Shown here: positions 1,470 to 44,441 of the stretch, piece after piece
How the letters are laid out: every line of letters begins with the position of its first letter
Position numbering within the stretch: the first letter of the stretch is position 1
IMG/VR virus record: IMGVR_UViG_3300008117_000088
Location: 1-64,000 of that record
Origin: a virus
Reading direction: 5' to 3' (one strand)
DNA: 64,000 nt
Notes under the pieces: model-generated
Databases searched by the model: none
What the model was told of the DNA's origin: nothing
What the model saw: only the letters and a program-made list of their open reading frames with translations
Position numbers and translations under genes: made by a program

Positions 1470-1670
1470 CTAAATCTTTTCGCATTCTGTGCGGATGTAG
1501 TCACGCAACTCAAATATTAATTCATCTGCTTCCATAGTGTCTTCATAGCCTTGTTCTTCAAGGTATTCGAAGAAATCACGAGATCCAACAAGGATAGGTA
1601 ACTCTCCGAGATCCGGATGCCAGATAACACCAATAATGTCATCTCTTTCAACAATAAACGGCTCTTTCAT
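1470..1670 (-). CDS. acidic hypothetical protein
   Basis: ORF track, start trimmed to ATG coupled with upstream stop (TAATG at 1670). Confidence 0.55.
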   Translation of the reverse strand: MKEPFIVERDDIIGVIWHPDLGELPILVGSRDFFEYLEEQGYEDTMEADELIFELRDYIRTECEKI

Positions 1671-1825
1671 TAATAACCTCCAAGGCATTGATCTGAATGC
1701 GTATGTATCCAGCGGGACTCATTGTACGCTTCCTTATTCGGAGCATATAACCAGAATCCACAAGCGCCACATTGACCACTCCACTCTTCCGCAAAGAAGT
1801 CGTACTCCATAAGCTTGTATCGCAT
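1670..1825 (-). CDS. 51-aa Zn-binding hypothetical protein (CGAC...HTH...C)
   Basis: Translated by hand: MRYKLMEYDFFAEEWSGQCGACGFWLYAP...HTHSDQCLGGY. Confidence 0.55.
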   Translation of the reverse strand: MRYKLMEYDFFAEEWSGQCGACGFWLYAPNKEAYNESRWIHTHSDQCLGGY

Positions 1826-1900
1826 GGGGGCCGACTCTACTCCCTAGGCTACTGTGTGACAAATTGAGGTGTTACCTACATTTGAGACCTGGCCCCCCTT

Positions 1901-1999
1901 TGTGATTTTGGCCACATTTAACCCTGGGGGGGTCAGCTTTGTGAGATGCGCCACATTATTACAAACCTACTTCCGCTAACTCAGCGTGTCTGCCATAGT
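1901..1999 (+). promoter_or_regulatory. early promoter module 1 with two CRP-like boxes
   Basis: TGTGA-N6-CCACA at 1901-1916 and 1940-1955; AAACCTAC; TTCCGC (1971)-17 bp-CATAGT (1994). Confidence 0.7.
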
Positions 2000-2041
2000 T
2001 CAACCATCAACACCGACCGAGTGTTGGTAAAGGGGCAACAA

Positions 2042-2326
2042 ATGGCAATCACAGCAGAAAACGCAAAGCGCATGATGTTAATCACCTCAAGCGCAAACCT
2101 CAGCGACGAGGACTTCCCGTTCTTTCGCAATCACATCACATCATTCAGCGAGTGGCTGGTATCCGAGGCAATCAACGACCTAGTGCGACTAGGTGTAGAT
2201 AAAGACCTTGCTTCCTCAATGCTCAACACCATCTCCCACATCTCAAGCATGGCGGGCGCAACCAATCTCTTTGATTACGGCGTGAGTGCCACAATCTTTG
2301 AGGAAAACGGACTTCGTGATGCGTAG
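2042..2326 (+). CDS. early hypothetical protein
   Basis: SD AAGGGG before ATG 2042. Confidence 0.7.
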   Translation: MAITAENAKRMMLITSSANLSDEDFPFFRNHITSFSEWLVSEAINDLVRLGVDKDLASSMLNTISHISSMAGATNLFDYGVSATIFEENGLRDA

Positions 2327-2480
2327 TCCTACTTACTATCGAATTCGAACACTTGTTCGGGTCTTATTCTGGACATCATTAGTCATAGGTATCTATTACC
2401 TAGCCACTCACATCAACTGGGTTGGCGATGGATACTGCTGGGGAACAATCACCGAGTGCTTCTTCGAGGAGGGGAAATGA
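2319..2480 (+). CDS. small membrane protein
   Basis: Hydrophobic segment LVRVLFWTSLVIGIYYLA; overlaps upstream stop. Confidence 0.65.
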   Translation: MRSPTYYRIRTLVRVLFWTSLVIGIYYLATHINWVGDGYCWGTITECFFEEGK

Positions 2481-2587
2481 CAGACGGCGAGATGATTGAC
2501 CAAATCATGGAATGGATCAACACGGACGGCGAACAGCTATCTGATGAAGATGTCATGAACAACATTAGGGAAATGCTCAAACAATAG
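2477..2587 (+). CDS. 36-aa acidic protein MTDGEMIDQIMEWINTDGEQLSDEDVMNNIREMLKQ
   Basis: ATGA overlap; SD GGAGGGG. Confidence 0.65.
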   Translation: MTDGEMIDQIMEWINTDGEQLSDEDVMNNIREMLKQ

Positions 2588-2602
2588 AGTTGCCCCACAA
2601 CA

Positions 2603-2634
2603 GCGGAGCGCCTGCCAATCGGTGGGCGCTTCGT
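2603..2634 (+). terminator. hairpin ending cassette 1
   Basis: GCGGAGCGCCTGCC-AATC-GGTGGGCGCTTCGT. Confidence 0.6.
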
Positions 2635-2648
2635 CTTGCTCGGCGAAA

Positions 2649-2789
2649 TGTTTGTGTTGGTCAGCCCACCCACCCTGACTCAACCCTAAAGGGAATAGGG
2701 GGGAGAGAAGCTCGAACAGATGTTCGGCCAGGAATGTGATGTAGATAACAACAAAGCCTATTCCGCTAACTGTGAGAAAGTGAGAAGGT
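2649..2789 (+). promoter_or_regulatory. early module 2
   Basis: TGTTTGTGTTGG 2649; CCCACCCACCC 2665; TGTGA-N6-TAACA 2735; TTCCGC 2761-17-GAAGGT 2784. Confidence 0.75.
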
Positions 2790-2837
2790 TCTCCTATCGG
2801 TGAAACAGAAGTAGCCGATAAGAAAGAAGGGGCAAAG

Positions 2838-3302
2838 ATGACCAAAGTCATCACTTACGGCTCAGCAGTAGAAGCGATAGACGCTCTCATGCTGGAGCAT
2901 GTAAATAACGCACCACTATCAGCAGACCTCGCTGAAGTTGTGGCGTTCGCAGTAAATAACGACCTACAAGTTCGGGATTATATTCTCGGATTACTACCTG
3001 ATGTTCTAACGGCACAAGGAGCGATTAGTTTCGTATCCGACCTGTTGCCACTCGTAGCGGAAGCCGACCGAGTTCCGTTCTACTCCGTATTATCCGCCTT
3101 CTACTCTGAAGCAGGGGATAACGACCTCGCCCACGCTTCACTATTCACAGCGCAGAGTCTAAATCCTGATTACTCTCTCGCTAAGTTGCTCTCTCGGGTT
3201 CTTGCCTCGGGTATGCCAATGGATTTCGCAAGCATGCGTGCGGAACTTCATCCGAAGGTTGTCGAAACCCTTACGGAGAATAGGGAACTGGTCATTTCCT
3301 AG
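2838..3302 (+). CDS. helical hypothetical protein (possibly DUF4192-like)
   Basis: SD GAAGGGG; VRD and YSLAKLL..L..G.P pattern. Confidence 0.65.
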   Translation: MTKVITYGSAVEAIDALMLEHVNNAPLSADLAEVVAFAVNNDLQVRDYILGLLPDVLTAQGAISFVSDLLPLVAEADRVPFYSVLSAFYSEAGDNDLAHASLFTAQSLNPDYSLAKLLSRVLASGMPMDFASMRAELHPKVVETLTENRELVIS

Positions 3303-3310
3303 AACTCACG

Positions 3311-3342
3311 CCGACCCCCACTCGCAAGGGTGGGGGGTTCGG
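3311..3342 (+). terminator. GC-rich hairpin with GCAA loop
   Basis: CCGACCCCCACTC-GCAA-GGGTGGGGGGTTCGG. Confidence 0.6.
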
Positions 3343-3371
3343 TGGATCGCGCCGGCCGCAGCTCGCGCAAA

Positions 3372-3494
3372 TGTTTGTGTTGAGACCCGCCCACCCTAGT
3401 CTCTGACTTACTTCGTAAGGGAGTTGTTGAGAGAGTTCGTGTGGCGCACATCACATCAAACCTACTTACGCTAACTAACGAGATAAGCAAAACT
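3372..3494 (+). promoter_or_regulatory. early module 3
   Basis: TGTTTGTGTTG 3372; CCCGCCCACCC 3386; TGTGG-N6-TCACA 3440; TTACGC 3466-17-AAAACT 3489. Confidence 0.75.
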
Positions 3495-3532
3495 AAGAGT
3501 GTTGGTGAAGGTCATCAACGGAAGGGGCAGTA

Positions 3533-3910
3533 ATGAAAGTAAAAGTGCCTGTAAATCTGGTAATCGCTGGTCTGGAACGCAGAGTAGCAGAAAACCGAGA
3601 GGTATCAGCACGCAACCAAATCGTTCGTGATAAATACGAGCAAGACAAAAAATCATGGGCAGAAGCGGTTGGCAAACTACCACTAGAAATAGATGATGTT
3701 AGTTATTCCACATGGCGAAACTCAGTATCTATTTCTTACAAAGTTCCAAACGGAACACGCATACCTGATGAACCACGACTTGGCGATTTAGAAAGCGAGT
3801 TGGGTAGCCATGAGGTTGATGAAATCGCTAATGCTGTTCGTATCTTAGGCATGAGCGAAGATGAGTATGTATCAGCAAGCACCATGAAGGAAATCGGAAG
3901 GTATCTCTAA
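3533..3910 (+). CDS. early hypothetical protein
   Basis: SD GAAGGGG; ORF track. Confidence 0.75.
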   Translation: MKVKVPVNLVIAGLERRVAENREVSARNQIVRDKYEQDKKSWAEAVGKLPLEIDDVSYSTWRNSVSISYKVPNGTRIPDEPRLGDLESELGSHEVDEIANAVRILGMSEDEYVSASTMKEIGRYL

Positions 3911-4395
3911 TGGGGTTGGACATGTATCTAGGCGCTCGCTCTACAAATAGCGAGTATCAAGAGTTGGGTTATTGGCGCAAGGCTAACGCTGTTCATGGTT
4001 GGTTCGTTCGTGAGTGCGCTAATGGATTAGATGAGTGCCAAGAGATTTTTGTATCTCGTGAGCAACTTCTAAAACTCCGTTCGGATTGTAATAATGCTCT
4101 CGCAAACCGAGAGAACGCAGTTCCGAATAATGAGGACAATGTAGTTATCAAGCAACCTGTTGGTAGCGGTCAAGACCTTGCTCAGTTCATCATGGAGAAC
4201 ATGAAAGCCGAGCAACAAAAGATTGGCACTACTCTGGTGAGTGATGACCCACTTCAGCCAACGGCTGGTTTCTTCTTCGGCTCAACCGAGAAAGATGAGT
4301 GGTATTACAACGACCTGATGGAAACCATTGACATCATAGATAAGGCGCTCGCCTTAGGTGATGATTGGCAAGTTATCTACCAAGCAAGTTGGTAG
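3910..4395 (+). CDS. conserved phage protein (MGLDMYL...YWRKANAVHGWF...YQASW family)
   Basis: Recognisable conserved phage motif; TAATG coupling. Confidence 0.8.
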   Translation: MGLDMYLGARSTNSEYQELGYWRKANAVHGWFVRECANGLDECQEIFVSREQLLKLRSDCNNALANRENAVPNNEDNVVIKQPVGSGQDLAQFIMENMKAEQQKIGTTLVSDDPLQPTAGFFFGSTEKDEWYYNDLMETIDIIDKALALGDDWQVIYQASW

Positions 4396-4404
4396 GTTGC
4401 CCCA

Positions 4405-4439
4405 AGCGAGTTGCCCCCGAAAGGGGGCGCTCGTTTTTT
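4405..4439 (+). terminator. intrinsic terminator
   Basis: GCCCCC-GAAA-GGGGGC stem plus T-run. Confidence 0.8.
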
Positions 4440-4464
4440 AGGGAACGCCAAACCCGAAGCCACT

Positions 4465-4582
4465 TGTTTGTGTTGGCTCCCACCCACCCTGAGCCTGATC
4501 CCTAAAGGGATAGGGAAAGAGAGCTCGTGTGATGTGGATCACTACAAAGCCTATTGTGCTAACTAGTGCTAGGCATTAGATT
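4465..4582 (+). promoter_or_regulatory. early module 4
   Basis: TGTTTGTGTTGG 4465; CCCACCCACCC 4479; TGTGA-N6-TCACT 4528; TTGTGC 4554-17-TAGATT 4577. Confidence 0.75.
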
Positions 4583-4619
4583 GGGTCTAGTTAGGAGATA
4601 CCTAACGGAAGGGGCAGAC

Positions 4620-4721
4620 ATGATGCTAATGGCGACATGTGTAGAGTGCGAGAGGGTGTTCAACCTTCTTGATGAGAATGATGCGAATGAGGTGGCATAT
4701 GGACACGATTGTGAGTCCTGA
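4620..4721 (+). CDS. 33-aa Zn-binding micro-protein (CVEC...GHDC)
   Basis: SD GAAGGGG; MMLMATCVECERVFNLLDENDANEVAYGHDCES. Confidence 0.7.
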   Translation: MMLMATCVECERVFNLLDENDANEVAYGHDCES

Positions 4722-4929
4722 GTCTCAAAAGTTTTACTCTAAGTATTATGGCGATTTAGTGGGCGCCACGATTCTTAGTTATGACGGGATGGTAGAGGAT
4801 GAGTTTGGAATGTATCCATTCCCTACATTTACTGTCCGGTTCAAGGATGGGCAGAAAGGTCAGATTCAGATCTATGCTGATGAGGAGGGTAATGGTGGCG
4901 GGTTCATCTCCGGATTAGCCTTGCCATAG
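4699..4929 (+). CDS. hypothetical protein (DEEGNGGG motif)
   Basis: ORF track; start either 4699 or GTG 4711. Confidence 0.65.
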   Translation: MDTIVSPESQKFYSKYYGDLVGATILSYDGMVEDEFGMYPFPTFTVRFKDGQKGQIQIYADEEGNGGGFISGLALP

Positions 4930-4938
4930 TAGATTTCG

Positions 4939-5037
4939 AGGTAGGTGCGTCAAAGCGGTTTATTTCCTTTCTTGCTCCCGCCAAGCGCATTCATGATCCG
5001 CCACACTTCTCGGGGAGATGTAGCTGCGTGCCTACCT
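4939..5037 (+). ncRNA. candidate structured 3'-UTR/small RNA
   Basis: AGGTAGGTGCG (4939) can pair with CGTGCCTACCT (5027), enclosing further stems and a pyrimidine loop. Confidence 0.35.
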
Positions 5038-5070
5038 ATTCCACAGCTGAGGCCGCCGGCCGCGGGGAAA

Positions 5071-5184
5071 GTTTGTGTTGGCCCACCCGCCCCGTTAAGG
5101 GAGTTGTTGTTATTCAGCTGTGATTCAAATCACAAGAGAAACTTTACAAACCTACTACCACGAAAGAGATATACATGAGAAGGT
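5071..5184 (+). promoter_or_regulatory. early module 5
   Basis: GTTTGTGTTGG 5071; CCCACCCGCCCC 5082; perfect TGTGA-N6-TCACA 5119; TACCAC 5156-17-GAAGGT. Confidence 0.7.
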
Positions 5185-5223
5185 TCACCTACCTAGTCAG
5201 GGCGACTAGAGAAAGAAGGGGTT

Positions 5224-5832
5224 ATGGGTTATTACATTGACCTAGTAGATGCAGAGTGGGAGATAACTGAATCTCCTGAATCTCTTGCAACTATTAGAGA
5301 GATGCCAACTAAATACCATGCTATTAAGCGTGGTGGCTCATCCAATGGCGAGAAGTGGTTCTCCTGGATGAATGATACTGATATCGAAACCGCGGAGACT
5401 GTAGAGAGTGTCTTCAATCAACTCGGATTCGAGACTGAAAAAGTAGACGGCGGGTTCAAACTTGCTTACTACAATAGCAAAACTGGTCAAGAAGATTTAT
5501 TTTTGGCGGTTATGGCTCCCTTTACCAAGGATGGTTCATACATTGAATGGCGAGGTGAGGACGGCGCGTTATGGAAGTTTGAAATCCACAACGGTCGCAT
5601 GTTTCGCTCCGAGTCTGAGATTATCTGGACCAACTCCCAACCGTATTCTTACTGGCACTATGATTTAGAGCCAGCAACAATGCAAGGACGTCAGATTAAT
5701 ATTGACCCACTTGCTCCCGCTGATGAGTTAGCGCAAGCGCTCAAAACTGCTAAAGAATGGGATGATGCGGACCAGGCATACTATGCCAAACTCCGTGCTG
5801 AACGTGAAGAGGCAGAGAAAGCCAACGCGTGA
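5224..5832 (+). CDS. early hypothetical protein (GSYIEWRGEDG motif)
   Basis: SD GAAGGGG; ORF track. Confidence 0.75.
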   Translation: MGYYIDLVDAEWEITESPESLATIREMPTKYHAIKRGGSSNGEKWFSWMNDTDIETAETVESVFNQLGFETEKVDGGFKLAYYNSKTGQEDLFLAVMAPFTKDGSYIEWRGEDGALWKFEIHNGRMFRSESEIIWTNSQPYSYWHYDLEPATMQGRQINIDPLAPADELAQALKTAKEWDDADQAYYAKLRAEREEAEKANA

Positions 5833-5963
5833 GAACTTTGCACGTATGTTGCTCGCACATACAGCATGAGAACTATTGCCCATGCTGTATGAGCGAGTGC
5901 GAAGCAGAGAAGGATTCTGGAATGCAAGGTCCTTACTGCAAGTGCAACAGATGTAGCAGCTAA
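5829..5963 (+). CDS. possible 44-aa Cys-rich micro-protein
   Basis: GTGA overlap; 9 Cys; overlaps strong hairpin 5851-5898. Confidence 0.4.
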   Translation: MRTLHVCCSHIQHENYCPCCMSECEAEKDSGMQGPYCKCNRCSS

Positions 5964-6001
5964 GGCTGCTGATGATCCAAGCTATGCCCCGCTAGGATCC
6001 A

Positions 6002-6041
6002 AACGAGCTCGGCCGCTGCCCCGGCCGGGCATCGTTTTTTT
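6002..6041 (+). terminator. intrinsic terminator
   Basis: CTCGGCCG-loop-CGGCCGGG stem plus T7. Confidence 0.75.
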
Positions 6042-6073
6042 AGGGCGCCAAATCTTATTTCCCGAATGCCTAA

Positions 6074-6210
6074 TGTTTGTGTTGGCCCGCCCTCCCCATT
6101 TATATACTAGGGAATATTCATATATTCATTCAGCTGCTGAAGAGAGCTGCAGTCATGTGATGTAAATCACTACAGACCTACTTACGCTAAAAGAGAGATG
6201 GACCTATGGT
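6074..6210 (+). promoter_or_regulatory. early module 6
   Basis: TGTTTGTGTTGG 6074; CCCGCCCTCCCC 6086; TGTGA-N6-TCACT 6156; TTACGC 6182-17-TATGGT 6205. Confidence 0.75.
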
Positions 6211-6253
6211 TCAGTCACTGGTTACAGATAGTAACTAAGTGAAGGGATAGAGA

Positions 6254-6508
6254 ATGCGTACTCTGAGAGAGATAGCGCTGGAGATAGATTGGGAATGCCG
6301 GGGTAAGTCTTGGTATCCATATGCAGAAGCATATGTCACTCCCATGATGTCACTCGATACCATGCAAGACCGGTACTTCGAGGATTCAGCAGAATCAATA
6401 GTCTCCTATGCACTGGCTAATCTCCAGTCATGGAGAGGAGACAATGCCCGTCGAATTAAGGCGGAACTCAATGCAATGCTCAAGTCAGCAAGGAAGGTGA
6501 ATGCATGA
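6254..6508 (+). CDS. conserved phage early protein (WRGDNARRIKAEL motif)
   Basis: SD GAAGGG; recognisable small phage family. Confidence 0.75.
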   Translation: MRTLREIALEIDWECRGKSWYPYAEAYVTPMMSLDTMQDRYFEDSAESIVSYALANLQSWRGDNARRIKAELNAMLKSARKVNA

Positions 6509-6957
6509 CAGCTGAGACATACAATCCGCATCAGCTAGTAACGTTGCGGGATATCAATGACGGGGCCGAAAGCTTCGTCATCCATAAAGCTACAGACCTC
6601 GAGTGGAAGCTCGAGACAGCTAAGCTCAATCGCCGGGAGCTGGATACAGCTCAAGCTAAGATTGGAGCTATCACTTCGGAGATGACCAGTGAAAGCTGGT
6701 ATCACTCGAATACAGATAAAGATGAAGTACTAAGTAAGCTCGAAGAGATTCTGGGCGTCAACCCTACAGCTACGATCAGCATCACAGCTACGATCGAGGT
6801 GTTCATTACAGCTGAGGTGCCGCTGAAAGAGCTCGACAGCTTCGATTCAGATTCACTGATCCACGACTCGATCACGATAGATGCGAGCGCTTGGGGATCA
6901 GAAGTCAATGTAGATGACTGGAATCTACAAAGCTCAGATTGGGAGGAACAGAGCTAA
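6505..6957 (+). CDS. acidic hypothetical protein (AGCT-saturated gene)
   Basis: ATGA overlap; ORF track. Confidence 0.7.
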   Translation: MTAETYNPHQLVTLRDINDGAESFVIHKATDLEWKLETAKLNRRELDTAQAKIGAITSEMTSESWYHSNTDKDEVLSKLEEILGVNPTATISITATIEVFITAEVPLKELDSFDSDSLIHDSITIDASAWGSEVNVDDWNLQSSDWEEQS

Positions 6958-7008
6958 CTCAGAGACAACGCACCCCGGGCCAGCTTCGCGGCGGCTCGGG
7001 GCTCGCGT

Positions 7009-7122
7009 TGTTTGTGTCGGCCCACCCACCCCATAGGGAATATATATAAGCTGCGGGCTCGGCCTGGTGTGAGATAGATCACTGCAAACCTACTTACACG
7101 TAGAGGGAGAGTCATATACCTT
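7009..7122 (+). promoter_or_regulatory. early module 7
   Basis: TGTTTGTGTCGG 7009; CCCACCCACCCC 7021; TGTGA-N6-TCACT 7068; TTACAC 7094-17-TACCTT 7117. Confidence 0.75.
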
Positions 7123-7144
7123 AAGCAATGAAGAGAGGGGTCTC

Positions 7145-7846
7145 ATGAAACTTAAACGGTCCAAAGATCGTAAAGTGGCTAATAGTCTTACTCCTAATGG
7201 GAAGACTGCAAGAATTGCTAATTCTTTCGGTTTACCCGCGGGGAGAGAGTACAGCTGCCCGGCGCAGACTTCAATTTGCGCTCGCATATGTTATGCCGGC
7301 AAGCTGGAGAAAATCTATCCAACAGTGCGTACTAACCTTATGCACAATTGGGAGATGCTTAAAGATGCAGATCATGACACGATGGAGAGTCTACTCGATG
7401 AGATGATTGTGGAATTCAAGGCGGAATGTGACAAGTGGTCCGCGCCTAAAGAATTTCGCATTCACTGGGACGGGGACTTCTTCTCCTCAGATTATGCATT
7501 CGCATGGAAGCATGTGATCATGAACCATCCGGACGTTCGCTTCTGGGTCTACACACGTGTAGAGTCTGCAGCTTATATGCTCCGGAACCTAGAGAATCTC
7601 ACTTTATACTTCTCCACTGATAAAGAGAATCTCGAAAGCGCTCAACGCCTACAGCGTGAAGGCGTGTTACTGGCAGGATTACACGATACTTTCGATCAAG
7701 CCAAGGATATGCTCCTGGCGCTAGGCGAGAGATCTGCAAAGTGTCCCGAGCAACGCAAGCAAATTCCCCTGGAAGGCGCCTGCATTGCATGCAAGATTTG
7801 CGTCAAGGGCACTAACAATATAACGTTCAGCATTACTAAGAGATAG
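7145..7846 (+). CDS. GP88-family protein (radical-SAM-like Cys motif)
   Basis: SFGLPAG...SCP...C..ICYA, RIHWDGDFF and WVYTR motifs. Confidence 0.75.
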   Translation: MKLKRSKDRKVANSLTPNGKTARIANSFGLPAGREYSCPAQTSICARICYAGKLEKIYPTVRTNLMHNWEMLKDADHDTMESLLDEMIVEFKAECDKWSAPKEFRIHWDGDFFSSDYAFAWKHVIMNHPDVRFWVYTRVESAAYMLRNLENLTLYFSTDKENLESAQRLQREGVLLAGLHDTFDQAKDMLLALGERSAKCPEQRKQIPLEGACIACKICVKGTNNITFSITKR

Positions 7847-7854
7847 GGATCAAT

Positions 7855-8124
7855 ATGGGATACACAACAGCGTTAGACTTAGCCGGCCAAATTCACCTGG
7901 ATCAAGGCCTGGCCCATCACTTAACCGGCAATCATTATCCGCCGGTACCGTTAACGATGGTCGATCCATGCAAAGCTGCAATCGATGCGTACCTGGATGA
8001 AGACTACGACCGGGAGATAGAGCTACCGGATCCAATTACGTATAAGGGCCGCACTACAGCGCCGGCACGGGCGATAGTAGATCAGCATCACTTGCACCCA
8101 TTCGTAGAATCACTGCAAGAATAA
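7855..8124 (+). CDS. conserved actinophage protein (HLTGNHYPPVP...HHL)
   Basis: ORF track; motif typical of small phage proteins. Confidence 0.7.
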   Translation: MGYTTALDLAGQIHLDQGLAHHLTGNHYPPVPLTMVDPCKAAIDAYLDEDYDREIELPDPITYKGRTTAPARAIVDQHHLHPFVESLQE

Positions 8125-8170
8125 TAGAGTTGCTCCCCTAGGTACTACCCTTCCACCTAGGGTCGAGCAC

Positions 8171-8214
8171 GGAGAAGCCGCGTTGTTTCAGGTCAGCGCG
8201 GCTTTCTTCTTTTT
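8171..8214 (+). terminator. intrinsic terminator
   Basis: GAAGCCGCGTTG...CAGCGCGGCTTTC plus T-run. Confidence 0.75.
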
Positions 8215-8245
8215 AAAAGGGAAATGCCTACTCCCAAAAGCCAAA

Positions 8246-8331
8246 TGTTTGTGTTGACCCTCCCACCCCTCATCCCTTCGGGATAGGGTGCGGCCGAAAA
8301 GTCAAGTAGCTTTGCTGTGATATTGCTCACA
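8246..8331 (+). promoter_or_regulatory. module 8, left half
   Basis: TGTTTGTGTTG 8246; CCCTCCCACCCC 8258; perfect TGTGA-N6-TCACA 8316. Confidence 0.7.
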
Positions 8332-8334
8332 CAG

Positions 8335-8485
8335 TGAGAGAGAGGCTCGGCCAGGCCGCCTATTCCAGTTAGTTTCACGTGAAACAAGCGATCTTCGAAG
8401 AAGAGAGCATGAATAAGAGAGATAGCTATTGGCAGAGAGAGCAGAGAGAGAAGAGAGAAGCCAAAAAGAGAGATAAGAGAGATAG
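8335..8485. repeat. GA-rich low-complexity tract
   Basis: Repeated GAGAGA/AAGAGAG; partial complement CTCTCTCTCTGC near 8666. Confidence 0.6.
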
Positions 8486-8711
8486 CCGACATTAAATGTC
8501 GACAAATCGACTAGTCGATTAGGCTACTGCATTGACCGGTCATGGCCTCCCCGGCTGTGCAGCCAGCTTTACAGCCTCGATCGGCTGAAACTATCCGATA
8601 TCACTGCAAGCTAATTGCTACCCAATGGCTGGCAGGGCAAAGAGATGTCAGTCCCTCTCTATATCCTCTCTCTCTGCATGTATAAGCCAATCTATTTGGG
8701 GCCGATTTTTC

Positions 8712-8766
8712 TGTGAGTCAAGTCACAGCAAACCTACTACCCCTAAGACGGCATATACGTAATGAT
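8712..8766 (+). promoter_or_regulatory. module 8, right half (promoter)
   Basis: Perfect TGTGA-N6-TCACA 8712; GCAAACCTAC; TACCCC 8738-17-AATGAT. Confidence 0.7.
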
Positions 8767-8803
8767 TAGAAAGTAAGGGCAAGAACTCAACGAAAGGTAT
8801 CAA

Positions 8804-9076
8804 ATGAGTCTCAAATGGGAACTCGATTATCACCAAGGTAAGTACAACGAAGCCAAGGCTAAGGAAAACGAAGCGTTCCACGCAATCCTCAAGATCATCA
8901 CTGATTTAGGCGGAAAGCGTGAGCACGTAGACAAGGCGATCGGTCTATGGGTAGATGGCACTTTGGCATCCAACGATATGGGATGGCACAGAGCATTTAG
9001 GTCTGAGGCTGAGGACAAGATTCAAGAACTTCGCAAGTTAGTCGATATGGATGAAGACGCGGAGTTGTTGAAATGA
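8804..9076 (+). CDS. hypothetical protein
   Basis: SD GAAAGG; ORF track. Confidence 0.7.
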   Translation: MSLKWELDYHQGKYNEAKAKENEAFHAILKIITDLGGKREHVDKAIGLWVDGTLASNDMGWHRAFRSEAEDKIQELRKLVDMDEDAELLK

Positions 9077-9180
9077 CGGGCAGACAAGTAGTCTGTCCTA
9101 CCTGCGGTAAAGAATTGGAGGTGAGGTCGGGCATCTTTGCCCACCAAACCCTCGCCCGCCATATGAAGGAGCATGAATGA
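9073..9180 (+). CDS. 35-aa C2H2-type zinc-finger micro-protein
   Basis: MTGRQVVCPTCGKELEVRSGIFAHQTLARHMKEHE; ATGA overlaps at both ends. Confidence 0.7.
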   Translation: MTGRQVVCPTCGKELEVRSGIFAHQTLARHMKEHE

Positions 9181-9431
9181 GCACTGATGATATATCTGTA
9201 GGCGATGCAATTATTGTAAAGGCGCTGTTGAACGGCACCTTTACTGATCCCGATGGAAACAAAGCAACATTAACTGTTAAGGGTTTTGTTGGTGCAAATA
9301 TCATTGCAGCTCGTGTGGCGTTGCTCACGCAACCACGCCCACTATCTGAAAGTGATATCACTGAGATTGTTAAGTTTCTCAAGGATGCAGAGACTGCATT
9401 GAACATGCTTGAGGACAAGGAACAAGAATGA
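9177..9431 (+). CDS. hypothetical protein
   Basis: SD AAGGAG; ATGA overlaps. Confidence 0.7.
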   Translation: MSTDDISVGDAIIVKALLNGTFTDPDGNKATLTVKGFVGANIIAARVALLTQPRPLSESDITEIVKFLKDAETALNMLEDKEQE

Positions 9432-10063
9432 AAGCGGTGTCGTTATTCGCCGGGGTCGGAGGTTTCGATCTTGCATTAGAACGTGCGGGTGTACCTGTTG
9501 TTGCATCTGTAGAGATTGATAAGCATGCACGTGGTGTACTGCAACAACAATTTCCTAACACAACATTATTGGAGGATGTAAAAAATGTCACAGGCGATCA
9601 ACTTAGAGAACTCGGATTCGAAGGTTCTGACGGAATTATTGTCGGAGGCTTCCCGTGTCAAGACCTCAGCGTTGCTGGTAAGCGAGCAGGTCTTGCTGGA
9701 GGTAGAAGCGGACTCTTCTGGGAAATCTGTCGCATCCTCGACGAAACGAAAACGAAATGGTTCGTCCTCGAAAACGTCCCCGGTCTTTTGTCATCTAACG
9801 AAGGACGAGATATGGGAACCGTCATCCAAGCGTTGGTTGAGCGCGGGTATGGGGTCGCATACAGGATTCTTGACGCTCAATACTTTGGAGTCGCCCAAAG
9901 AAGACGTCGTATCTTCATTGTCGGATGTCTTGGAGACAACGGGCGAGCACCTGCAGAAGTACTTGCTCTCATCGAAGGCATGCGAGGGTATTCTGAGGCG
10001 ATCAACCAAAAAGGGAAAACAACTTCCTCCCTTGCTTCACTCAGCTTTGGAGAACATGACTAA
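9428..10063 (+). CDS. DNA (cytosine-5) methyltransferase, N-terminal catalytic part (motifs I-VIII)
   Basis: FAGVGG (I), GGFPCQD (IV), ENV (VI), QRRRRIF (VIII). Confidence 0.92.
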   Translation: MKAVSLFAGVGGFDLALERAGVPVVASVEIDKHARGVLQQQFPNTTLLEDVKNVTGDQLRELGFEGSDGIIVGGFPCQDLSVAGKRAGLAGGRSGLFWEICRILDETKTKWFVLENVPGLLSSNEGRDMGTVIQALVERGYGVAYRILDAQYFGVAQRRRRIFIVGCLGDNGRAPAEVLALIEGMRGYSEAINQKGKTTSSLASLSFGEHD

Positions 10064-10082
10064 TGTGGTTCATAAAGAGTAG
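9585..10082 (+). CDS. overprinted MTase beta-like subunit in alternative frame
   Basis: SSLSDVLE...KYLLSSKACEGILRRSTKKGKQLPPLLHSAL, recalled pattern of M.EcoHK31I-beta-like polypeptides; true start uncertain. Confidence 0.6.
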   Translation: MSQAINLENSDSKVLTELLSEASRVKTSALLVSEQVLLEVEADSSGKSVASSTKRKRNGSSSKTSPVFCHLTKDEIWEPSSKRWLSAGMGSHTGFLTLNTLESPKEDVVSSLSDVLETTGEHLQKYLLSSKACEGILRRSTKKGKQLPPLLHSALENMTNVVHKE

Positions 10083-10602
10083 GCGTGCAAAGGACGTGGA
10101 AGATTATGAAACTTGGGTTGATGCGGAGGTTACTCCTACATTGAACGCATTCGATAACAATGGCGATACACGATCAACGGTGCTTATCTTCTACACTGGT
10201 ACCTTTGGTGAAGTACGAGTACAGGGAGATGTGATTAATACGTTGCCGGCAAAGATGGGAACGGGTGGTAATAACACTCCTATGATGGCATTCCCTATCC
10301 AGGGAACAATCATCGGTCGCAGTGATACTGCTGGACCACAAGGCAAAGGATTTGGTGATTCTACTGATCCTATGTACACAATAGATACCGTTGGTGGTAA
10401 TGCGGTTGCAACTCCTGCAATGGTGCGACGTTTAACTCCGTTAGAATGTGAGCGCCTACAAGGGTTTCCCGATAACTGGACTGCATCACAGTCTGATTCA
10501 CAACGATATAAACAAATGGGCAATGCGGTAGCAGTACCGGTTGTTCAATGGATAATAGATAGGTTGGTTGACGTTGAAACAAGATTTAATGCAAATGCTT
10601 AA
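10063..10602 (+). CDS. cytosine MTase C-terminal part (TRD repeats plus motifs IX-X)
   Basis: RRLTPLECERLQGFP and YKQMGNAV; TAATG coupling. Confidence 0.88.
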   Translation: MWFIKSRRAKDVEDYETWVDAEVTPTLNAFDNNGDTRSTVLIFYTGTFGEVRVQGDVINTLPAKMGTGGNNTPMMAFPIQGTIIGRSDTAGPQGKGFGDSTDPMYTIDTVGGNAVATPAMVRRLTPLECERLQGFPDNWTASQSDSQRYKQMGNAVAVPVVQWIIDRLVDVETRFNANA

Positions 10603-10771
10603 GTCTCAAGTAAAAGACATGTATGGAAAGCACGGCTTAAAAGCTGTGGATGAGTATTTAGATCAAAACTACAAGTTAATACCTTGGGAGCAATGCTACG
10701 AGTGCGACAAGATTACGCCCCGTGATCCACGCACACTAAAGTGTTTCTTTGAGGAGGATCATGAGTTCTAA
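10595..10771 (+). CDS. small Cys-containing hypothetical protein
   Basis: ORF track, start trimmed. Confidence 0.55.
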   Translation: MLKSQVKDMYGKHGLKAVDEYLDQNYKLIPWEQCYECDKITPRDPRTLKCFFEEDHEF

Positions 10772-11174
10772 ATGGGACTATGCTTTTTACGATCGTAACT
10801 CACAGCCTTGCACTTTAAAGGAATGGAGCGAAGAATTCGGTAGTCCATATGCATTCAAGAAGGATGTGTTTGTAAAAGATTATCGAGTATTAACCAAGTG
10901 GACCGGAGTTGATATGCCGGAATACGATTGGTTGCAAAAGAATCAATTCAGTTCTAAGAACTGGAAACCAAACTCTAAGCCATCACCGTTTGTTTCATAC
11001 GTATGGAATGCTGACGGGGAAATCGTAGAGTCAAAGCGTTATCAAACTATTGAACGTGCATACAAAGGTCATGCTGAATTAGTTCAGCGCTTTGCTAAGG
11101 AAGACCTTGGTGTGTATCATGTGCCTGTAGTCCTACAAGATATGGAGGAAACAAATGGCGAAGAAAAAGATTAA
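10761..11174 (+). CDS. hypothetical protein
   Basis: SD GAGGAGG before ATG 10761. Confidence 0.7.
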   Translation: MSSKWDYAFYDRNSQPCTLKEWSEEFGSPYAFKKDVFVKDYRVLTKWTGVDMPEYDWLQKNQFSSKNWKPNSKPSPFVSYVWNADGEIVESKRYQTIERAYKGHAELVQRFAKEDLGVYHVPVVLQDMEETNGEEKD

Positions 11175-11463
11175 AGTCTTTAAAGTTTCGCTTACAAACA
11201 ACTTTGAAAAAGGTGGCGGTTGGCTGTGCCACGTTCGTTGTTATGATGAACGTGATCAGTACGAAGCATCTTTTACAGATGTAATTGGTCAGTCAGACTA
11301 TTCTGCTTGGAAAAACCCTTCAGCAGCTAAGCGTCACGCTAAAGCTATGGCTCAGAAATGGACCACCAAGAAAAGCGTAAAGATGATTGCTGGTACAACT
11401 ACCGATTCAAAGGGCAAGCCTGCAACATTTCATGGCGAGTTTACTTTTAAAGTCGACGCCTAA
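11155..11463 (+). CDS. hypothetical protein
   Basis: SD GGAGG; ORF track. Confidence 0.7.
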   Translation: MAKKKIKVFKVSLTNNFEKGGGWLCHVRCYDERDQYEASFTDVIGQSDYSAWKNPSAAKRHAKAMAQKWTTKKSVKMIAGTTTDSKGKPATFHGEFTFKVDA

Positions 11464-11472
11464 ATAGAATAA

Positions 11473-11520
11473 CCCCCAGCATTAAGCATCGGCTGTGACC
11501 GACATGCTGGGGGCTTTTCT
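11473..11520. terminator. terminator at convergence of plus and minus transcription
   Basis: CCCCCAGCAT...ATGCTGGGGG stem followed by T-rich run. Confidence 0.75.
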
Positions 11521-11781
11521 TTAGTACGACAATATTTCTGGCAGTACTTCTTTACCTATAATTCTGTGCTTTCTTCTGTACTCATCTCTTTGATCTGTCG
11601 TAGTGCCCGCCCATATTCCTTGAACTTTATTCTCTATTGCGTATTTAAAACATTCATCTTGAACTGGGCAGTTTTTACATATTCTCTTCACATGACCCAA
11701 CTGTTGATAATGCATTCCTTCATCAGGAAAGAACAATTCAGTGTCAAGTCCTAAACATGAAGGGGTGCCACTAAAGCGCAT
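11521..11781 (-). CDS. whiB: WhiB-family transcription factor
   Basis: C...ELFFP...CKNCPVQDEC...GIWAG motif. Confidence 0.9.
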   Translation of the reverse strand: MRFSGTPSCLGLDTELFFPDEGMHYQQLGHVKRICKNCPVQDECFKYAIENKVQGIWAGTTTDQRDEYRRKHRIIGKEVLPEILSY

Positions 11782-12019
11782 TACTCTCCGGTTTCACTGT
11801 TCTTAATGAAGCAATTTTATCTGGTCTAAATCCAGACCAATGATTGTTATTGCTGACCACAACCGGAGTGTATTTATACCCCATAGAAACTACTAGATCA
11901 TAAGCATCTTTGTTTTCAGTTATGTCAACAGTATTAAATTCAATACCGTATTTGTTTAAATACTTTTTAGTTGCATCGCATTGTGGGCAATCTGGTTTTG
12001 TATATACCGTAGTGCTCAT
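11771..12019 (-). CDS. nrdH: NrdH-like glutaredoxin
   Basis: VYTKPDCPQC and WSGFRPDKI. Confidence 0.92.
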   Translation of the reverse strand: MSTTVYTKPDCPQCDATKKYLNKYGIEFNTVDITENKDAYDLVVSMGYKYTPVVVSNNNHWSGFRPDKIASLRTVKPESNAL

Positions 12020-25697: not shown

Positions 25698-26005
25698 TCT
25701 TCGAGTGTCTTCCCGTTCTTGGTCGCCTTACGCTTAAGAGCATTACGCTCTCTGTGGCTAAGACCGCCCCATATGCCGTGTTGTTCATCGTTTTGGTCCG
25801 AATACAGTAAGCACTCTATTCGCACAGGACATTCTGCCTTACCATCCTTGCCAAAGCAAACCGCCTTGGCTTTATCGGCAATAGGCTTATATTTAGTTTT
25901 ATCTCTGGGGGGAAACCAGTAATCAGTCTCGGGACTTGAGCACATGCCGCGACACTTGGCTTGGTATCGCCACTTTTCTACGCCTTCGTCTTCGTACAAG
26001 AGCAC
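25679..26005 (-). CDS. whiB: WhiB-family transcription factor
   Basis: AKC...WFP...AKAVC...CPVRIEC...GIWGGLS..ER. Confidence 0.9.
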   Translation of the reverse strand: MLLYEDEGVEKWRYQAKCRGMCSSPETDYWFPPRDKTKYKPIADKAKAVCFGKDGKAECPVRIECLLYSDQNDEQHGIWGGLSHRERNALKRKATKNGKTLEEWVKKK

Positions 26006-43392: not shown

Positions 43393-44441
43393 TACTCAAT
43401 CTCCTCAATTAACTCTCCGGCTCTGGTGAAAGATCCGATTTTGGTGGTTATGGTGTCCACTTGCTTATTTGGCAACCTATATTCTACCGAAACTGTCAGT
43501 ACTAGGTCACTTAATCCTTGGTTAGGTTCTTTTTCAATTTCAACTCTAATGAGCTTTAGTTCAGGCAAAAACTCTCCAAAAGAAGAAGTGATGGTCTGTT
43601 GTACAAAATCAATGACCGAGCCTTCCGGTTCAAACAATGCGTCGGTCGCAATGCTGCCGTAGTTTGGTCTCATTGGTCTTTCCCCAAATCGAGTAAAGAT
43701 TGCTCCAAATACCCGGTCTGCCCACTGTTTAGACTCTAGGTTGTTTGTGTTGATGGCACCTGAGGCATTGAAAGAAAAAGGAAGCGATATATCTCCGCCT
43801 TCAAACATAGCCCAAGCCGGGGTGTTTGGTCTCGGTTTATATTTACCAATTAAGCTTACAGTAGCAATAATGCCAGGCGTAGCGGGACCTACCCCTGCGG
43901 CATCAGAACTTATAAACGTATTGGTGTTGCTTGCGGATGCAACAAATTGAATGTAATCCCCGGCGTCTAAATCTAAAATAAGAGCTACGGTCATTGTAAT
44001 TTCAGAATTGTTTCCAGCTAATGTAATTTTAGTATTGCTATCAGGAATATCTACACCATTTTTTCTAAACCAAATATTAGCTGTCCCAGAGTTAGCGTTT
44101 GTTTTAGTAAGCATAGAAGAAAACTGAACAAAATAATCTCCAGTTTCTTCCACATATATTTTATCCCCATCTAAATACGTTTTATTTGCGTCTCCCTCAA
44201 CCCAACTAGTGTTGATTAAGGTAGGGGTATTAACCCCAATAGCCTGATCTCCTGTTGTGTAAAAAGTTCCATAAGGGTAGTTAATTTGGTTGATTGCACC
44301 ACCTACAGGCCAGGCCCATTCGGTCACGGCTTCGCCAAGCACTTGAGGTATGTAAAGTTTTGCTCTACCTAGGTCTAACGGATCGTCTGCGTCCGCTATT
44401 ACCCCACGATAGATACCATAAAAACGATTATCAGAGGACAT
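43392..44441 (-). CDS. fusion: gp5/gpV OB-fold with C1q-like insert plus gp25-like sheath initiator
   Basis: YGIYRG...DP..GR...WAWP; L.AGDYIQ; FEGGD then ISLPF...T..GERPMRP.YG. Confidence 0.75.
   Translation of the reverse strand: MSSDNRFYGIYRGVIADADDPLDLGRAKLYIPQVLGEAVTEWAWPVGGAINQINYPYGTFYTTGDQAIGVNTPTLINTSWVEGDANKTYLDGDKIYVEETGDYFVQFSSMLTKTNANSGTANIWFRKNGVDIPDSNTKITLAGNNSEITMTVALILDLDAGDYIQFVASASNTNTFISSDAAGVGPATPGIIATVSLIGKYKPRPNTPAWAMFEGGDISLPFSFNASGAINTNNLESKQWADRVFGAIFTRFGERPMRPNYGSIATDALFEPEGSVIDFVQQTITSSFGEFLPELKLIRVEIEKEPNQGLSDLVLTVSVEYRLPNKQVDTITTKIGSFTRAGELIEEIE

Follow-up and report, generated by a model that had tools for sequence, protein, structure and literature searches.

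The window analysed here (64,000 nt) is the start of the complete 96,030-bp genome of a phage, an uncultured myovirus. Two WhiB genes in the phage genome identify it as an actinophage, and it looks lytic, since the complete genome gave no match to the tyrosine integrase family (PF00589). Sigma-70 region 2 had no match in the phage, and the T7-type polymerase family had none either, in a search whose control likewise returned nothing. Searches for N-like or NusG-like proteins found none. The region from about 1890 to 8803 may, at even odds and jointly with the full explanation given below, be the block in which a lytic actinophage keeps its early genes. It carries short rightward cassettes separated by repeated intergenic modules. 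The first unit, before module 1, comprises genes at 2042-2326, 2286-2480 and 2456-2587. Module 1 is followed by a DUF4192-like gene (2838-3302), module 2 by 3533-3910 and 3910-4395, module 3 by 4669-4929 and an uncertain gene at 4620-4721, module 4 by 5224-5832, module 5 by 6254-6508 and 6505-6957, and module 6 by 7145-7846 (GP88 family) and 7855-8124. None of the ten cassette proteins tested (10/10) has a known function, which speaks neither for nor against the host-takeover or anti-defence role that the earlier note had proposed.

The earlier note on this DNA had described seven intergenic regions sharing one ordered module; the seven lie at 2588-8803, and all the coordinates that it named hold. 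The 10-mer GTTTGTGTYG starts at 2650, 3373, 4466, 5071, 6075, 7010 and 8247; these module copies account for seven of its ten matches in the window, where 0.40 were expected. Each of the seven is followed after 1-5 nt by CCCNCCCNCCC, which is confined to these seven sites within the 96-kb genome. The box TGTGA-N6-TCACA, with at most one mismatch, was found 11 times in the window (2.3 expected), and ten of these matches lie in the early region, at 1901, 1940, 2735, 3440, 4528, 5119, 6156, 7068, 8316 and 8712. In the modules, an AAVCCTAY box adjoins a TTnCGC-like hexamer, and 17 bp past it stands a second hexamer, whose second base is A and sixth base T in 8/8 copies; in most copies a hairpin in the 5'-UTR follows, and then AAGGGG as ribosome-binding site. 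With its terminator hairpin, operator and promoter ahead of these, each module is plausibly, as had been proposed, a self-contained unit in front of one to three small genes. Correcting the earlier note, the variable stretch from the CCC motif to the box is structured too: it forms another hairpin, with AGGGA(A/G)T at its end. The module consists of two separable halves, designated here part A (10-mer and hairpins) and part B (box and promoter). Judging from its arrangement, part A is separable from the promoter, because the first promoters lack it and sister phages pair the same part A with other operators.

At the left edge, a leftward promoter-like site detected by consensus scan (1834-1862, minus strand, TTGTCA-17-TAGAGT) belongs to the divergent arm and lies about 81 bp from the 1901 box. 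Two CRP/GlxR-like boxes (1901-1916 and 1940-1955) without part A make up a half-module before the first cassette; of the half-module formerly placed at 1940, a promoter-only copy at 1901/1940 is what was confirmed. The first rightward promoter, predicted by consensus only, spans 1963-1999 (AAACCTAC, TTCCGC at 1971-1976, 17 bp, CATAGT at 1994-1999). All seven modules lie on the plus strand. Module 1 (2588-2837) has a GC hairpin at about 2604-2631, part A at 2650-2707 (10-mer 2650-2659, C-loop 2665-2675 in a GTCAG/CTGAC stem, GGGAA 2691-2695), a LexA-like box (2712-2727), a CRP-like box (2735-2750), a promoter (2761-2789), a UTR hairpin and AAGGGG. Module 2 (3303-3532) has two GC hairpins, part A at 3373-3433 (49.9 bits; C-loop 3386-3396, stem AGAC/GTCT, second hairpin CTTAC/GTAAG), a box at 3440-3455 and a promoter at 3466-3494. 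In module 3 (4396-4619), a T-run terminator (4412-4439) and an optional pre-A piece (4437-4465) precede part A (4466-4522; 56.3 bits; C-loop 4479-4489, stem GGCTC/GAGCC), the box (4528-4543) and the promoter TTGTGC-17-TAGATT (4554-4582). Module 4 (4930-5223) has a part A of short type (5071-5110), a perfect box (5119-5134), 11 extra bp before AAACCTAC (5148-5155), and a promoter at 5156-5184. Module 5 (5833-6253) consists of a T-run terminator (6007-6040), a pre-A piece (6041-6074), part A (6075-6145), a box (6156-6171) and the promoter TTACGC-17-TATGGT (6182-6210). Module 6 (6958-7144) has a hairpin (6969-7005), the shortest type of part A, a GTTTGTGTCG variant (7010-7045), a box (7068-7083) and a promoter (7094-7122).

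Module 7 (8125-8331) has a T-run terminator (8174-8215), a pre-A piece (8216-8246), a part A of the CCCTTCGGGATAGGGT subtype (8247-8290), which occupies the last place of the array in six relatives, and a perfect box (8316-8331). It had been reported as one unit at 8246/8712. The elements are present, but the copy at 8247 is a part A and a box without the AAACCTAC promoter part. A 380-nt non-coding block on the plus strand follows (8332-8711), with a GA-rich tract (8332-8490) and a conserved stretch of AATGTCGACAAA, GGCTACTGC and CCAG..ACAGCC (8496-8700); the block is kept at the array end in at least 12 relatives and has no Rfam match. The array is closed by a second promoter-only module on the plus strand (8712-8803), with a perfect box (8712-8727), AAACCTAC (8730-8737) and a promoter (8738-8766).

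Part A, about 55-75 nt long, comprises the invariant 10-mer GTTTGTGTTG, a covarying stem (P1) around the invariant CCCNCCCNCCC loop, and the second hairpin (P2), often with GAGAGAG. It was found in 50 IMG/VR contigs, all of related phages, and in no GenBank phage; the Rfam 15 families, including 6C and the known ribozymes, gave no relevant match (E up to 5, 1500-12000). Across 114 copies from the 50 contigs, the 10-mer and the C-loop are invariant, the stems covary and the interior diverges, which points to purifying selection on structure. The 38 distinct P1 stems contain 170 Watson-Crick pairs, eight G-T and no A-C. In the gap-free subset, 93.8% of cells are paired, compared with 78% after shuffling (0/500 reach the observed value) and 24-45% with slid partners; 23 cells are double changes and 12 are G-U. 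We take this covariation, G-U pairs included, to show that part A folds as a single strand and that such folding is under selection. The GTTTGTGTTG/CCC part is accordingly, on comparative grounds, a covarying hairpin element conserved far beyond the source phage, a feature missing from the earlier note.

Two readings of part A bear directly on these data. It might lack a function of its own and persist as a repeat of the MITE or REP kind, selfish or hitch-hiking, or only as a recombination substrate in the sense of the promoter-early stem-loop elements known as PeSL. The many copies per array, the reassortment of subtypes, the PeSL precedent (PMC4122927) and one genome (L001) with four nearly identical copies, suggestive of conversion or duplication, would suit such a repeat. 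However, we hold it very improbable in view of the invariant 10-mer and C-loop, the covarying stems, and the identity in 44/44 copies between the base after CCCC and the base after GGGA; neither a Y1 transposase nor a tyrosine integrase was found. Part A could also be non-B DNA (a G-quadruplex or i-motif of G3-N-G3-N-G3, a (GA)n triplex or a cruciform) that senses or absorbs supercoiling between tandem units. This idea draws on the invariant C3-N-C3-N-C3 tract and the adjoining GAGAGAG tract, but it is hardly credible: a fourth C/G run lies within reach in only 3/7 window copies, GAGAG stands 5' of the box in only 4/7 and is missing from the other 3/7, and with stems of 4-9 bp and loops of 11 nt cruciform extrusion from duplex would be too weak.

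In part B, TGTGA-N6-TCACA stands at a fixed spacing from a predicted weak sigma-A-type promoter, one copy being shifted by 11 bp, that is, one helical turn. The box is a 16-bp pseudo-palindrome that fits the CRP/GlxR consensus, with three perfect copies; the GlxR consensus of Actinobacteria is TGTGANNTANNTCACA (PMC4254451). By its sequence and its fixed place upstream of promoters it would resemble a CRP/GlxR operator, although no Crp-type HTH was matched in the phage genome. Estimated from the predicted hexamers, the box centre is at about -53.5, which is not a classical CRP activation position; two copies have it at -58.5 and -64.5. The module promoters were missed by a generic E. coli-type promoter scan and are thus weak by that consensus. 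Both the off-position box and the weak promoters were counted against the explanation favoured below. A CRP-like box accompanies 68/141 part A copies; in sister lineages, LexA-like, DnaA-box, HAIR-like, CGACACGCC and GTTAT-repeat operators stand beside part A. The co-regulated array that had been proposed is therefore upheld inside one phage lineage but not across sister phages, which use other operators.

Gene order is not fixed among relatives but differs widely. Families F1, F6, F8, F14, F17, F29 and F30 occur in many orders and cassette combinations with part A elements between them, part A subtypes reassort with respect to both neighbouring genes, and no cassette gene or early protein is common to all five complete genomes compared. 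Shuffling at the modules, as earlier suggested, is borne out as far as the PeSL-like reshuffled order goes, but breakpoints also fall inside cassettes, where genes join or leave (F8-F17 or F8-F1 without an intervening module); these intra-cassette rearrangements were also counted against our explanation. In the PeSL of T4-type phages, a stem-loop is directly followed by a sigma-70 promoter within about 50 bp (Arbiol 2010, PMC2839356; Comeau 2014, PMC4122927), and mini-circle formation was shown in RB49/phi1 (PMC2839356; PMC4122927). Both systems place composite terminator and early-promoter repeats between small variable early genes, in many copies and in a plastic region, and here too the flanking genes vary among relatives. 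Given the reshuffled order, the PeSL analogy holds at the level of mode of working. In contrast to the direct joining in PeSL, hairpin and promoter are set 120-170 bp apart here, with a conserved folded element and a box for a regulator in the gap; neither the phage lineages nor the host phyla are related, so that the two systems share no sequence homology. An integron-type attC cassette array was rejected (no PF00589 match, and no 3' partner for the 10-mer in the window copies), and REP/RAYT or IS200/IS605-type repeats were set aside, as the Y1 (HUH) transposase family PF01797 had no match.

Beyond the array, the 10-mer is strongly polar: its strand ratio is 12:1 over the whole genome, and 9:1, 10:1 and 10:1 in relatives. 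This polarity of the 10-mer alone is new here and was missing from the earlier note. The genome holds six lone copies where 0.25 are expected: 43743-43752 (GTTTGTGTTG) and 55998-56007 (GTTTGTGTTG(GG)), both on the plus strand and antisense within virion genes, and four past the window, at genome positions 64716, 72216, 79881 and 89485. Lone 10-mers share the strand of the early genes even where they fall within leftward virion genes or in the gaps between them, and do not follow local gene direction; 8-9/19 are intergenic. Two stand directly after a hairpin and T-run (G001, 93319; G002, 243), and rightward units have the 10-mer as a mark of their 3' ends also where the remainder of part A is missing.

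A polar DNA site is one way to read this. The 10-mer may be bound by a phage protein that blocks polymerase from one direction, in the manner of a stoperator, insulating or shutting off rightward transcription at borders and stopping antisense transcription in virion genes, with the part A hairpins as accessories. Its asymmetry, invariance and single orientation, the excess of lone copies, many of them intergenic, and the lack of 10-mer enrichment in the candidate host bin outside its phage-like contig all favour this. Actinophages offer a precedent in the Cluster A mycobacteriophage stoperators, 13-mers whose orientation follows local transcription and to which the immunity repressor of temperate phages binds (PMC9283540); as there, asymmetric multi-copy sites of strict orientation sit in short intergenic spaces. 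In contrast to stoperators, however, the 10-mer keeps to one strand genome-wide whatever the gene direction, belongs to a phage that looks lytic and is joined to a covarying hairpin, whose G-U pairs mark a selected single-strand fold that a duplex-binding site would not need. No repressor-like protein was recognised in the phage, and an early protein shared by the five genomes is absent. We consider this reading unlikely.

C-rich-loop small RNAs of Gram-positive bacteria (6C, LhrC, RsaE) are hairpins with C triplets, and LhrC is multi-copy and tandem, two traits that part A shares. Part A might accordingly be a multi-copy small RNA, or yield sRNA-like 3' or 5' fragments, acting in trans. G-rich ribosome-binding sites would then be the partners of the C-loop, while the 10-mer would pair with CAACACAAAC sites in late mRNAs and time late expression. 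The invariant C-rich loop with a single-stranded 10-mer on its 5' side and the G-rich ribosome-binding sites of the phage (AAGGGG) fit, as do the lone 10-mers, which read CAACACAAAC in late mRNAs and include one conserved site 27 nt before the start of a late gene. The pre-A piece of some copies has the form TGCCAA-N17-19-TAATNT, and one subtype has a strong hairpin directly 3', resembling a stand-alone small gene. Yet most copies lack a promoter and terminator of their own, target positions are unconserved between phages apart from that one site, and neither the Rfam 6C model nor any other family matched. This makes the trans-acting reading quite unlikely.

The explanation we favour, with a probability of roughly 0.5, is that the module joins, in this order, a terminator, a directional insulator and a promoter linked to a host regulator. 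Host RNA polymerase would read the composite modules from left to right, and the GC-rich hairpin would end the upstream cassette. A strong fold (-20 kcal/mol or lower) is present in the 68 nt upstream of 79% of 139 part A copies, compared with 14% of controls, and a T-run in 35%. Part A, as a strand-specific single-strand fold of 10-mer, P1 with its C-rich loop, and P2 ending AGGGART, may then work on polymerases or transcripts that have run past the hairpin, as a site of fail-safe termination, processing or factor loading, and so insulate each cassette from its neighbour. Lambda-type nut sites (boxA and a boxB hairpin) are few and lie downstream of promoters. Like them, part A sets a short linear conserved element ahead of a hairpin whose stem varies and whose loop is conserved, and it is polar and co-oriented with transcription; in contrast to them, it occurs at every cassette, after a terminator and before the promoter that comes next. 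The CRP/GlxR-type box, at its fixed distance, would tie each cassette to a host global regulator, with the UTR hairpin and AAGGGG site following the promoter. The invariant part A ends provide 20 bp or more of identity wherever cassettes meet and would thus be substrates for homologous exchange, so that related phages would shuffle their early genes in a PeSL-like way.

Three window copies of part A stand behind good T-run terminators, so that little read-through RNA would reach them, which speaks against this explanation. Same-strand 10-mers in and between leftward virion genes fit a DNA-level polar signal as well as RNA. Two further observations were counted against it: part A has no evident promoter ahead of it, and in a sister lineage the complement of the 10-mer lies about 90 nt downstream of it.

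It is a tentative and rather unlikely possibility that part A represents a new class of phage regulatory nucleic acid, a 10-mer address with a C-rich-loop hairpin read one way, acting in cis (nut- or terminator-like) or in trans as a small RNA pairing with CAACACAAAC. If so, part A would set the early-to-late programme in a large group of uncultured freshwater actinophages, whose early promoters would be connected with regulators of the host through CRP/GlxR, LexA, DnaA and HspR-type boxes.

The repeated module that the earlier note had placed between the early-gene cassettes is real, lies at the coordinates given there and is far above chance. Seven intergenic regions (2588-8803) share one order of elements. 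Read 5' to 3', they carry a GC-rich hairpin, with a T-run in three of the seven; (A/T)3-T followed by GTTTGTGTYG, hereafter the '10-mer'; after 1 to 5 nt, the C motif CCCNCCCNCCC; a variable stretch of 26 to 59 nt; TGTGA-N6-TCACA; a CAAACCTAC-like box abutting a TTnCGC hexamer; 17 bp and then a hexamer whose A2 and T6 are present in 8/8 copies; and a UTR hairpin with AAGGGG. The promoter half stands alone at 1901/1940 and 8712. A generic scan for sigma-70 promoters and terminators did not single out the module promoters.

Several smaller features accompany the array. Both cassette 1 and cassette 3 have GTGTTGG, the 3' part of the 10-mer, inside their 5'-UTR hairpins (2010-2030 and 3499-3523). 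An optional 'pre-A' piece, AGGG-n-GCCAAA-n-CCCaAAGCC-nAAT, is found after T-run terminators (4437-4465, 6041-6074 and 8216-8246) and in about 20 copies from relatives; some of these pieces resemble TGCCAA-N17-19-TAATNT, a possible candidate promoter with its start inside the 10-mer. The last folded element is followed by a non-coding block (8332-8711) that has no match in Rfam. It contains a GA-rich tract, in which GAGAGA is repeated about nine times, and a second stretch, AAT(T)GTCGACAAA (often twice), GGCTACTGC and CCAG..ACAGCC, kept at array ends in at least 12 relatives; possible readings of the block are a non-coding RNA and an origin-like region.

The phage is represented by a single 96,030-bp contig with overlapping ends, which IMG/VR classes as a complete viral genome bearing terminal repeats. 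It encodes a tail sheath, baseplate and tape-measure-like peptidase, a ribonucleotide reductase, a DpdA-like transglycosylase, PolA, RecA, and DnaB-, DnaG- and DnaC-like replication proteins. A block of small genes reads rightward from 2042 to about 11,460, and the remainder of the genome reads leftward. Two genes, at 11584-11763 (-) and 25736-25972 (-), belong to the WhiB family, which is regarded as restricted to Actinobacteria and their phages (PMC10202952). GC content is 44 to 49%, no tRNAs were found, and the best GenBank relatives are Streptomyces phages, with a PolA identity of only 38%. A pattern scan of 185,579 cellular genomes yielded true copies of the element on only two short phage-like contigs, one binned with a Nanopelagicaceae MAG and the other with a Rhodoferax MAG. 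The host is therefore probably a low-GC freshwater actinobacterium. In the arm adjoining the early block, a small HNH_3 endonuclease (genome 95174-95467 (-), equivalent to 7174-7467 of locus L126; the other L numbers below denote loci in relatives) is conserved in 4/5 genomes; it would be of interest if the 10-mer were a nick site.

The left half of the module, designated 'part A', is the portion conserved across the whole group, as seen in an alignment of 114 copies. Its components are the 10-mer, the C motif, a second hairpin ending in AGGGA(A/G)T, a tail of 6 to 10 nt that is often a 3- to 4-nt micro-repeat, and GAGAGAG. A pattern search of IMG/VR for the 10-mer combined with the C motif gave 63 loci in 52 contigs, two of the loci being chance matches; many of these contigs are about 95 kb long, and arrays hold up to eight copies. 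About 140 copies of part A are present in 50 uncultured phage contigs. A covariance model built from copies of part A, a check proposed in the earlier note, recovered complete elements from the early arrays of the five complete genomes and from nowhere else in them. No GenBank phage matched the array region or a part A copy, and Rfam gave no relevant match over 1500-12000 at a permissive E-value.

The bases separating the 10-mer from the C motif are complementary to the bases directly after the C motif, and so form a first hairpin, P1, around the C-rich loop. The 38 distinct P1 stems comprise 170 Watson-Crick pairs, 8 G-T pairs and no A-C pair. In a gap-free alignment of 16 copies, 93.8% of the cells of an 8-pair helix were paired, compared to 78% in shuffles (0/500 reached the observed value) and 24 to 45% with slid partners; 23 cells showed double changes and 12 were G-U. 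The 10-mer ends in GTTG, and these four bases pair with a YAAC further downstream to form the base of this helix. A sister lineage has CCAACACAAAC about 90 nt downstream of the 10-mer; there the whole 10-mer is paired with it, and the C motif is enclosed together with two or three hairpins. The presence of G-U pairs together with the absence of A-C pairs indicates that the gene-sense strand folds. A cruciform is not credible with stems of 4 to 9 bp around an 11-nt loop; given this weakness and the strand of folding, we favour RNA as the folded molecule, single-stranded DNA being the alternative. RNAalifold returned no pairs on a MAFFT alignment of the 114 copies because the variable arms were misaligned; a gap-free subset and a named structure were used instead. 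A comparison of minimum free energies favoured the minus strand, and was rejected as confounded by the G-rich complement; wobble pairs counted in the defined helices favoured the plus strand.

Part A always has the orientation of the genes. The 68 nt upstream of it, with a GC content of 59%, fold strongly (<= -20 kcal/mol) in 79% of 139 copies, compared to 14% of controls; part A therefore separates the end of one unit from the regulatory region of its successor. In two relatives, a bare 10-mer directly follows the last rightward terminator (hairpin and T-run). Since the first promoters of arrays have no part A, it is dispensable for promoter function. In the short type of part A, the base after CCCC equals the base after GGGA (22 G/G, 20 A/A, 2 T/T, 0 discordant; window copies 5093/5103, 6097/6114 and 7032/7040, plus 41 in relatives), a match of identity and not of complementarity. 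A separate subtype, found at the divergent junction and facing the non-array arm (L003, L007, L014, L020, L041 and L055), is directly followed by a GC hairpin of 10 bp to which the GAGAGAG tract contributes; judged by its sequence, it looks like a stand-alone small RNA gene.

The right half of the module, part B, comprises an operator box and a promoter, and it differs between lineages. A CRP-like box was present in 68/141 copies. Other types include TGTGGATAA, a DnaA-box sequence; TTGAGT-N7-ACTCAA, which resembles the HspR HAIR motif; CGACACGCC; and GTTAT-N-GTTAT. The HAIR-like box takes the place of CRP-like boxes in L009, L052 and L061, as do repeats of the DnaA box, TTATCCACA, in L002, L006, L008, L020 and L048. 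A LexA type, TCGAAC-N4-GTTCG, agrees with the mycobacterial LexA consensus (PMC3381160). A LexA-like box is also seen in the window at 2712-2727 (TCGAAC-AGAT-GTTCGG, 11/12 positions of the mycobacterial box TCGAAC-N4-GTTCGA). In the cassette of a DUF4192-like gene, it has part A on one side and the CRP-like box on the other, and the same box precedes this family in L051, L052 and L058. The box of the window phage fits the consensus TGTGANNTANNTCACA of GlxR, which is mostly an activator (PMC4254451). From their sequences, the early promoters of this group seem to use differing host-regulator motifs. No match to a Crp-type HTH or to sigma-70 region 2 was found in the phage, so that service of the modules by the host polymerase and a host regulator is the simplest reading. 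A search for the T7-type RNA polymerase family also gave no match in the phage, but its control likewise matched nowhere, so that this negative carries no weight.

The 10-mer is also strand-polar. Across the genome, the early-gene strand carries 12 copies of GTTTGTGTTG and the opposite strand one; the ratios in relatives are 9:1, 10:1 and 10:1. Six copies outside the array compare to 0.25 expected under strand-specific Markov models (P about 3e-7), and the 7-mer parts of the 10-mer are not enriched. The lone copies lie at 13242 (-), 43743 (+) and 55998 (+), and beyond the window at 64716, 72216, 79881 and 89485 (all +). They are mostly followed directly by GG and are confined to the virion-gene half, never occurring in the replication module; the genes and reading frames they occupy vary, their positions are non-homologous between phages, and 8 to 9 of 19 are intergenic. 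Three genomes share one conserved site, 27 nt ahead of the start of a late gene, where the 10-mer is joined to a GC hairpin whose base is GTTG/CAAC. The polarity fits a signal for something moving rightward, for example antisense or read-through transcription; a polar site at the DNA level, or target sites (CAACACAAAC) in late mRNAs, fit equally. A host motif of the Chi or KOPS kind was rejected, true copies being limited to the two phage-like contigs among 185,579 genomes; the 10-mer was not enriched in the Nanopelagicaceae bin outside its phage-like contig. Like stoperators, the 10-mer is short, asymmetric, multi-copy and oriented (PMC9283540), but it does not have their defining tie to the local direction of transcription. 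It poses a puzzle of its own, for which stoperators, Chi sites and T5-type nick sites are the few precedents.

To follow gene content, ORFs of all loci were clustered into families. Families F1, F8, F14/F13, F17, F29, F30, F6/F10 and F25 recur in many orders: at least six different families occur upstream of F8, and F1 and F8 are arranged as F1|F8, as F8|F1, or as F8-F1 within one cassette. Subtypes of part A, defined by stem and second hairpin, recur across phages unlinked to the upstream or downstream gene, except for the 'CCCTTCGGGATAGGGT' subtype, which occupies the last array position in six relatives. No cassette gene is present in all five complete genomes. Gene order is therefore not fixed in relatives. 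Of the proposal that genes are shuffled at module borders, the swapping of gene order holds, but rearrangements are not limited to the borders; the relatives, at 65 to 75% identity, are too divergent for junctions to be mapped. Integron-like and REP-like readings fail, since no tyrosine integrase or Y1 transposase was matched in the phage; NusG was not matched either. Pfam and PHROG searches with ten cassette proteins returned DUF4192, GP88 and PHROGs, all families of unknown function, and the role in host takeover or anti-defence proposed earlier is a guess from position. The likeness to the promoter-early stem-loop cassettes (PeSLs) of T4-type phages (PMC4122927) held for the effect of the module; the module is nevertheless not a PeSL family member, because its hairpin and promoter do not form one compact unit and the phage lineage is unrelated.

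We conclude that the architecture is real, strongly non-random, family-wide and regulatory; its promoter/operator half is ordinary in kind, while the folded part A and the polar 10-mer are undescribed. In our proposal, a terminator would close the upstream unit, part A would act as a directional insulator on read-through transcripts, and a promoter tied to a host regulator would follow, recombination at the conserved joints being an evolutionary consequence. We give this statement as a whole about an even chance (0.5); the RNA-insulator step, taken alone, is tentative and rather doubtful.

Transcription control in actinophages is little known. Part A, being sharply defined, covarying, present in about 140 copies and absent from Rfam and from sequenced isolates, is a concrete candidate for a new actinophage cis-regulatory element. 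The PeSL principle, in which regulatory repeats serve as joints for early-gene shuffling, is not confined to T4-type phages and here has a richer form. That the operator half can be exchanged suggests a coupling of early genes to physiological regulators of the host; if this is true, it would be a means of reading the state of the host at infection.
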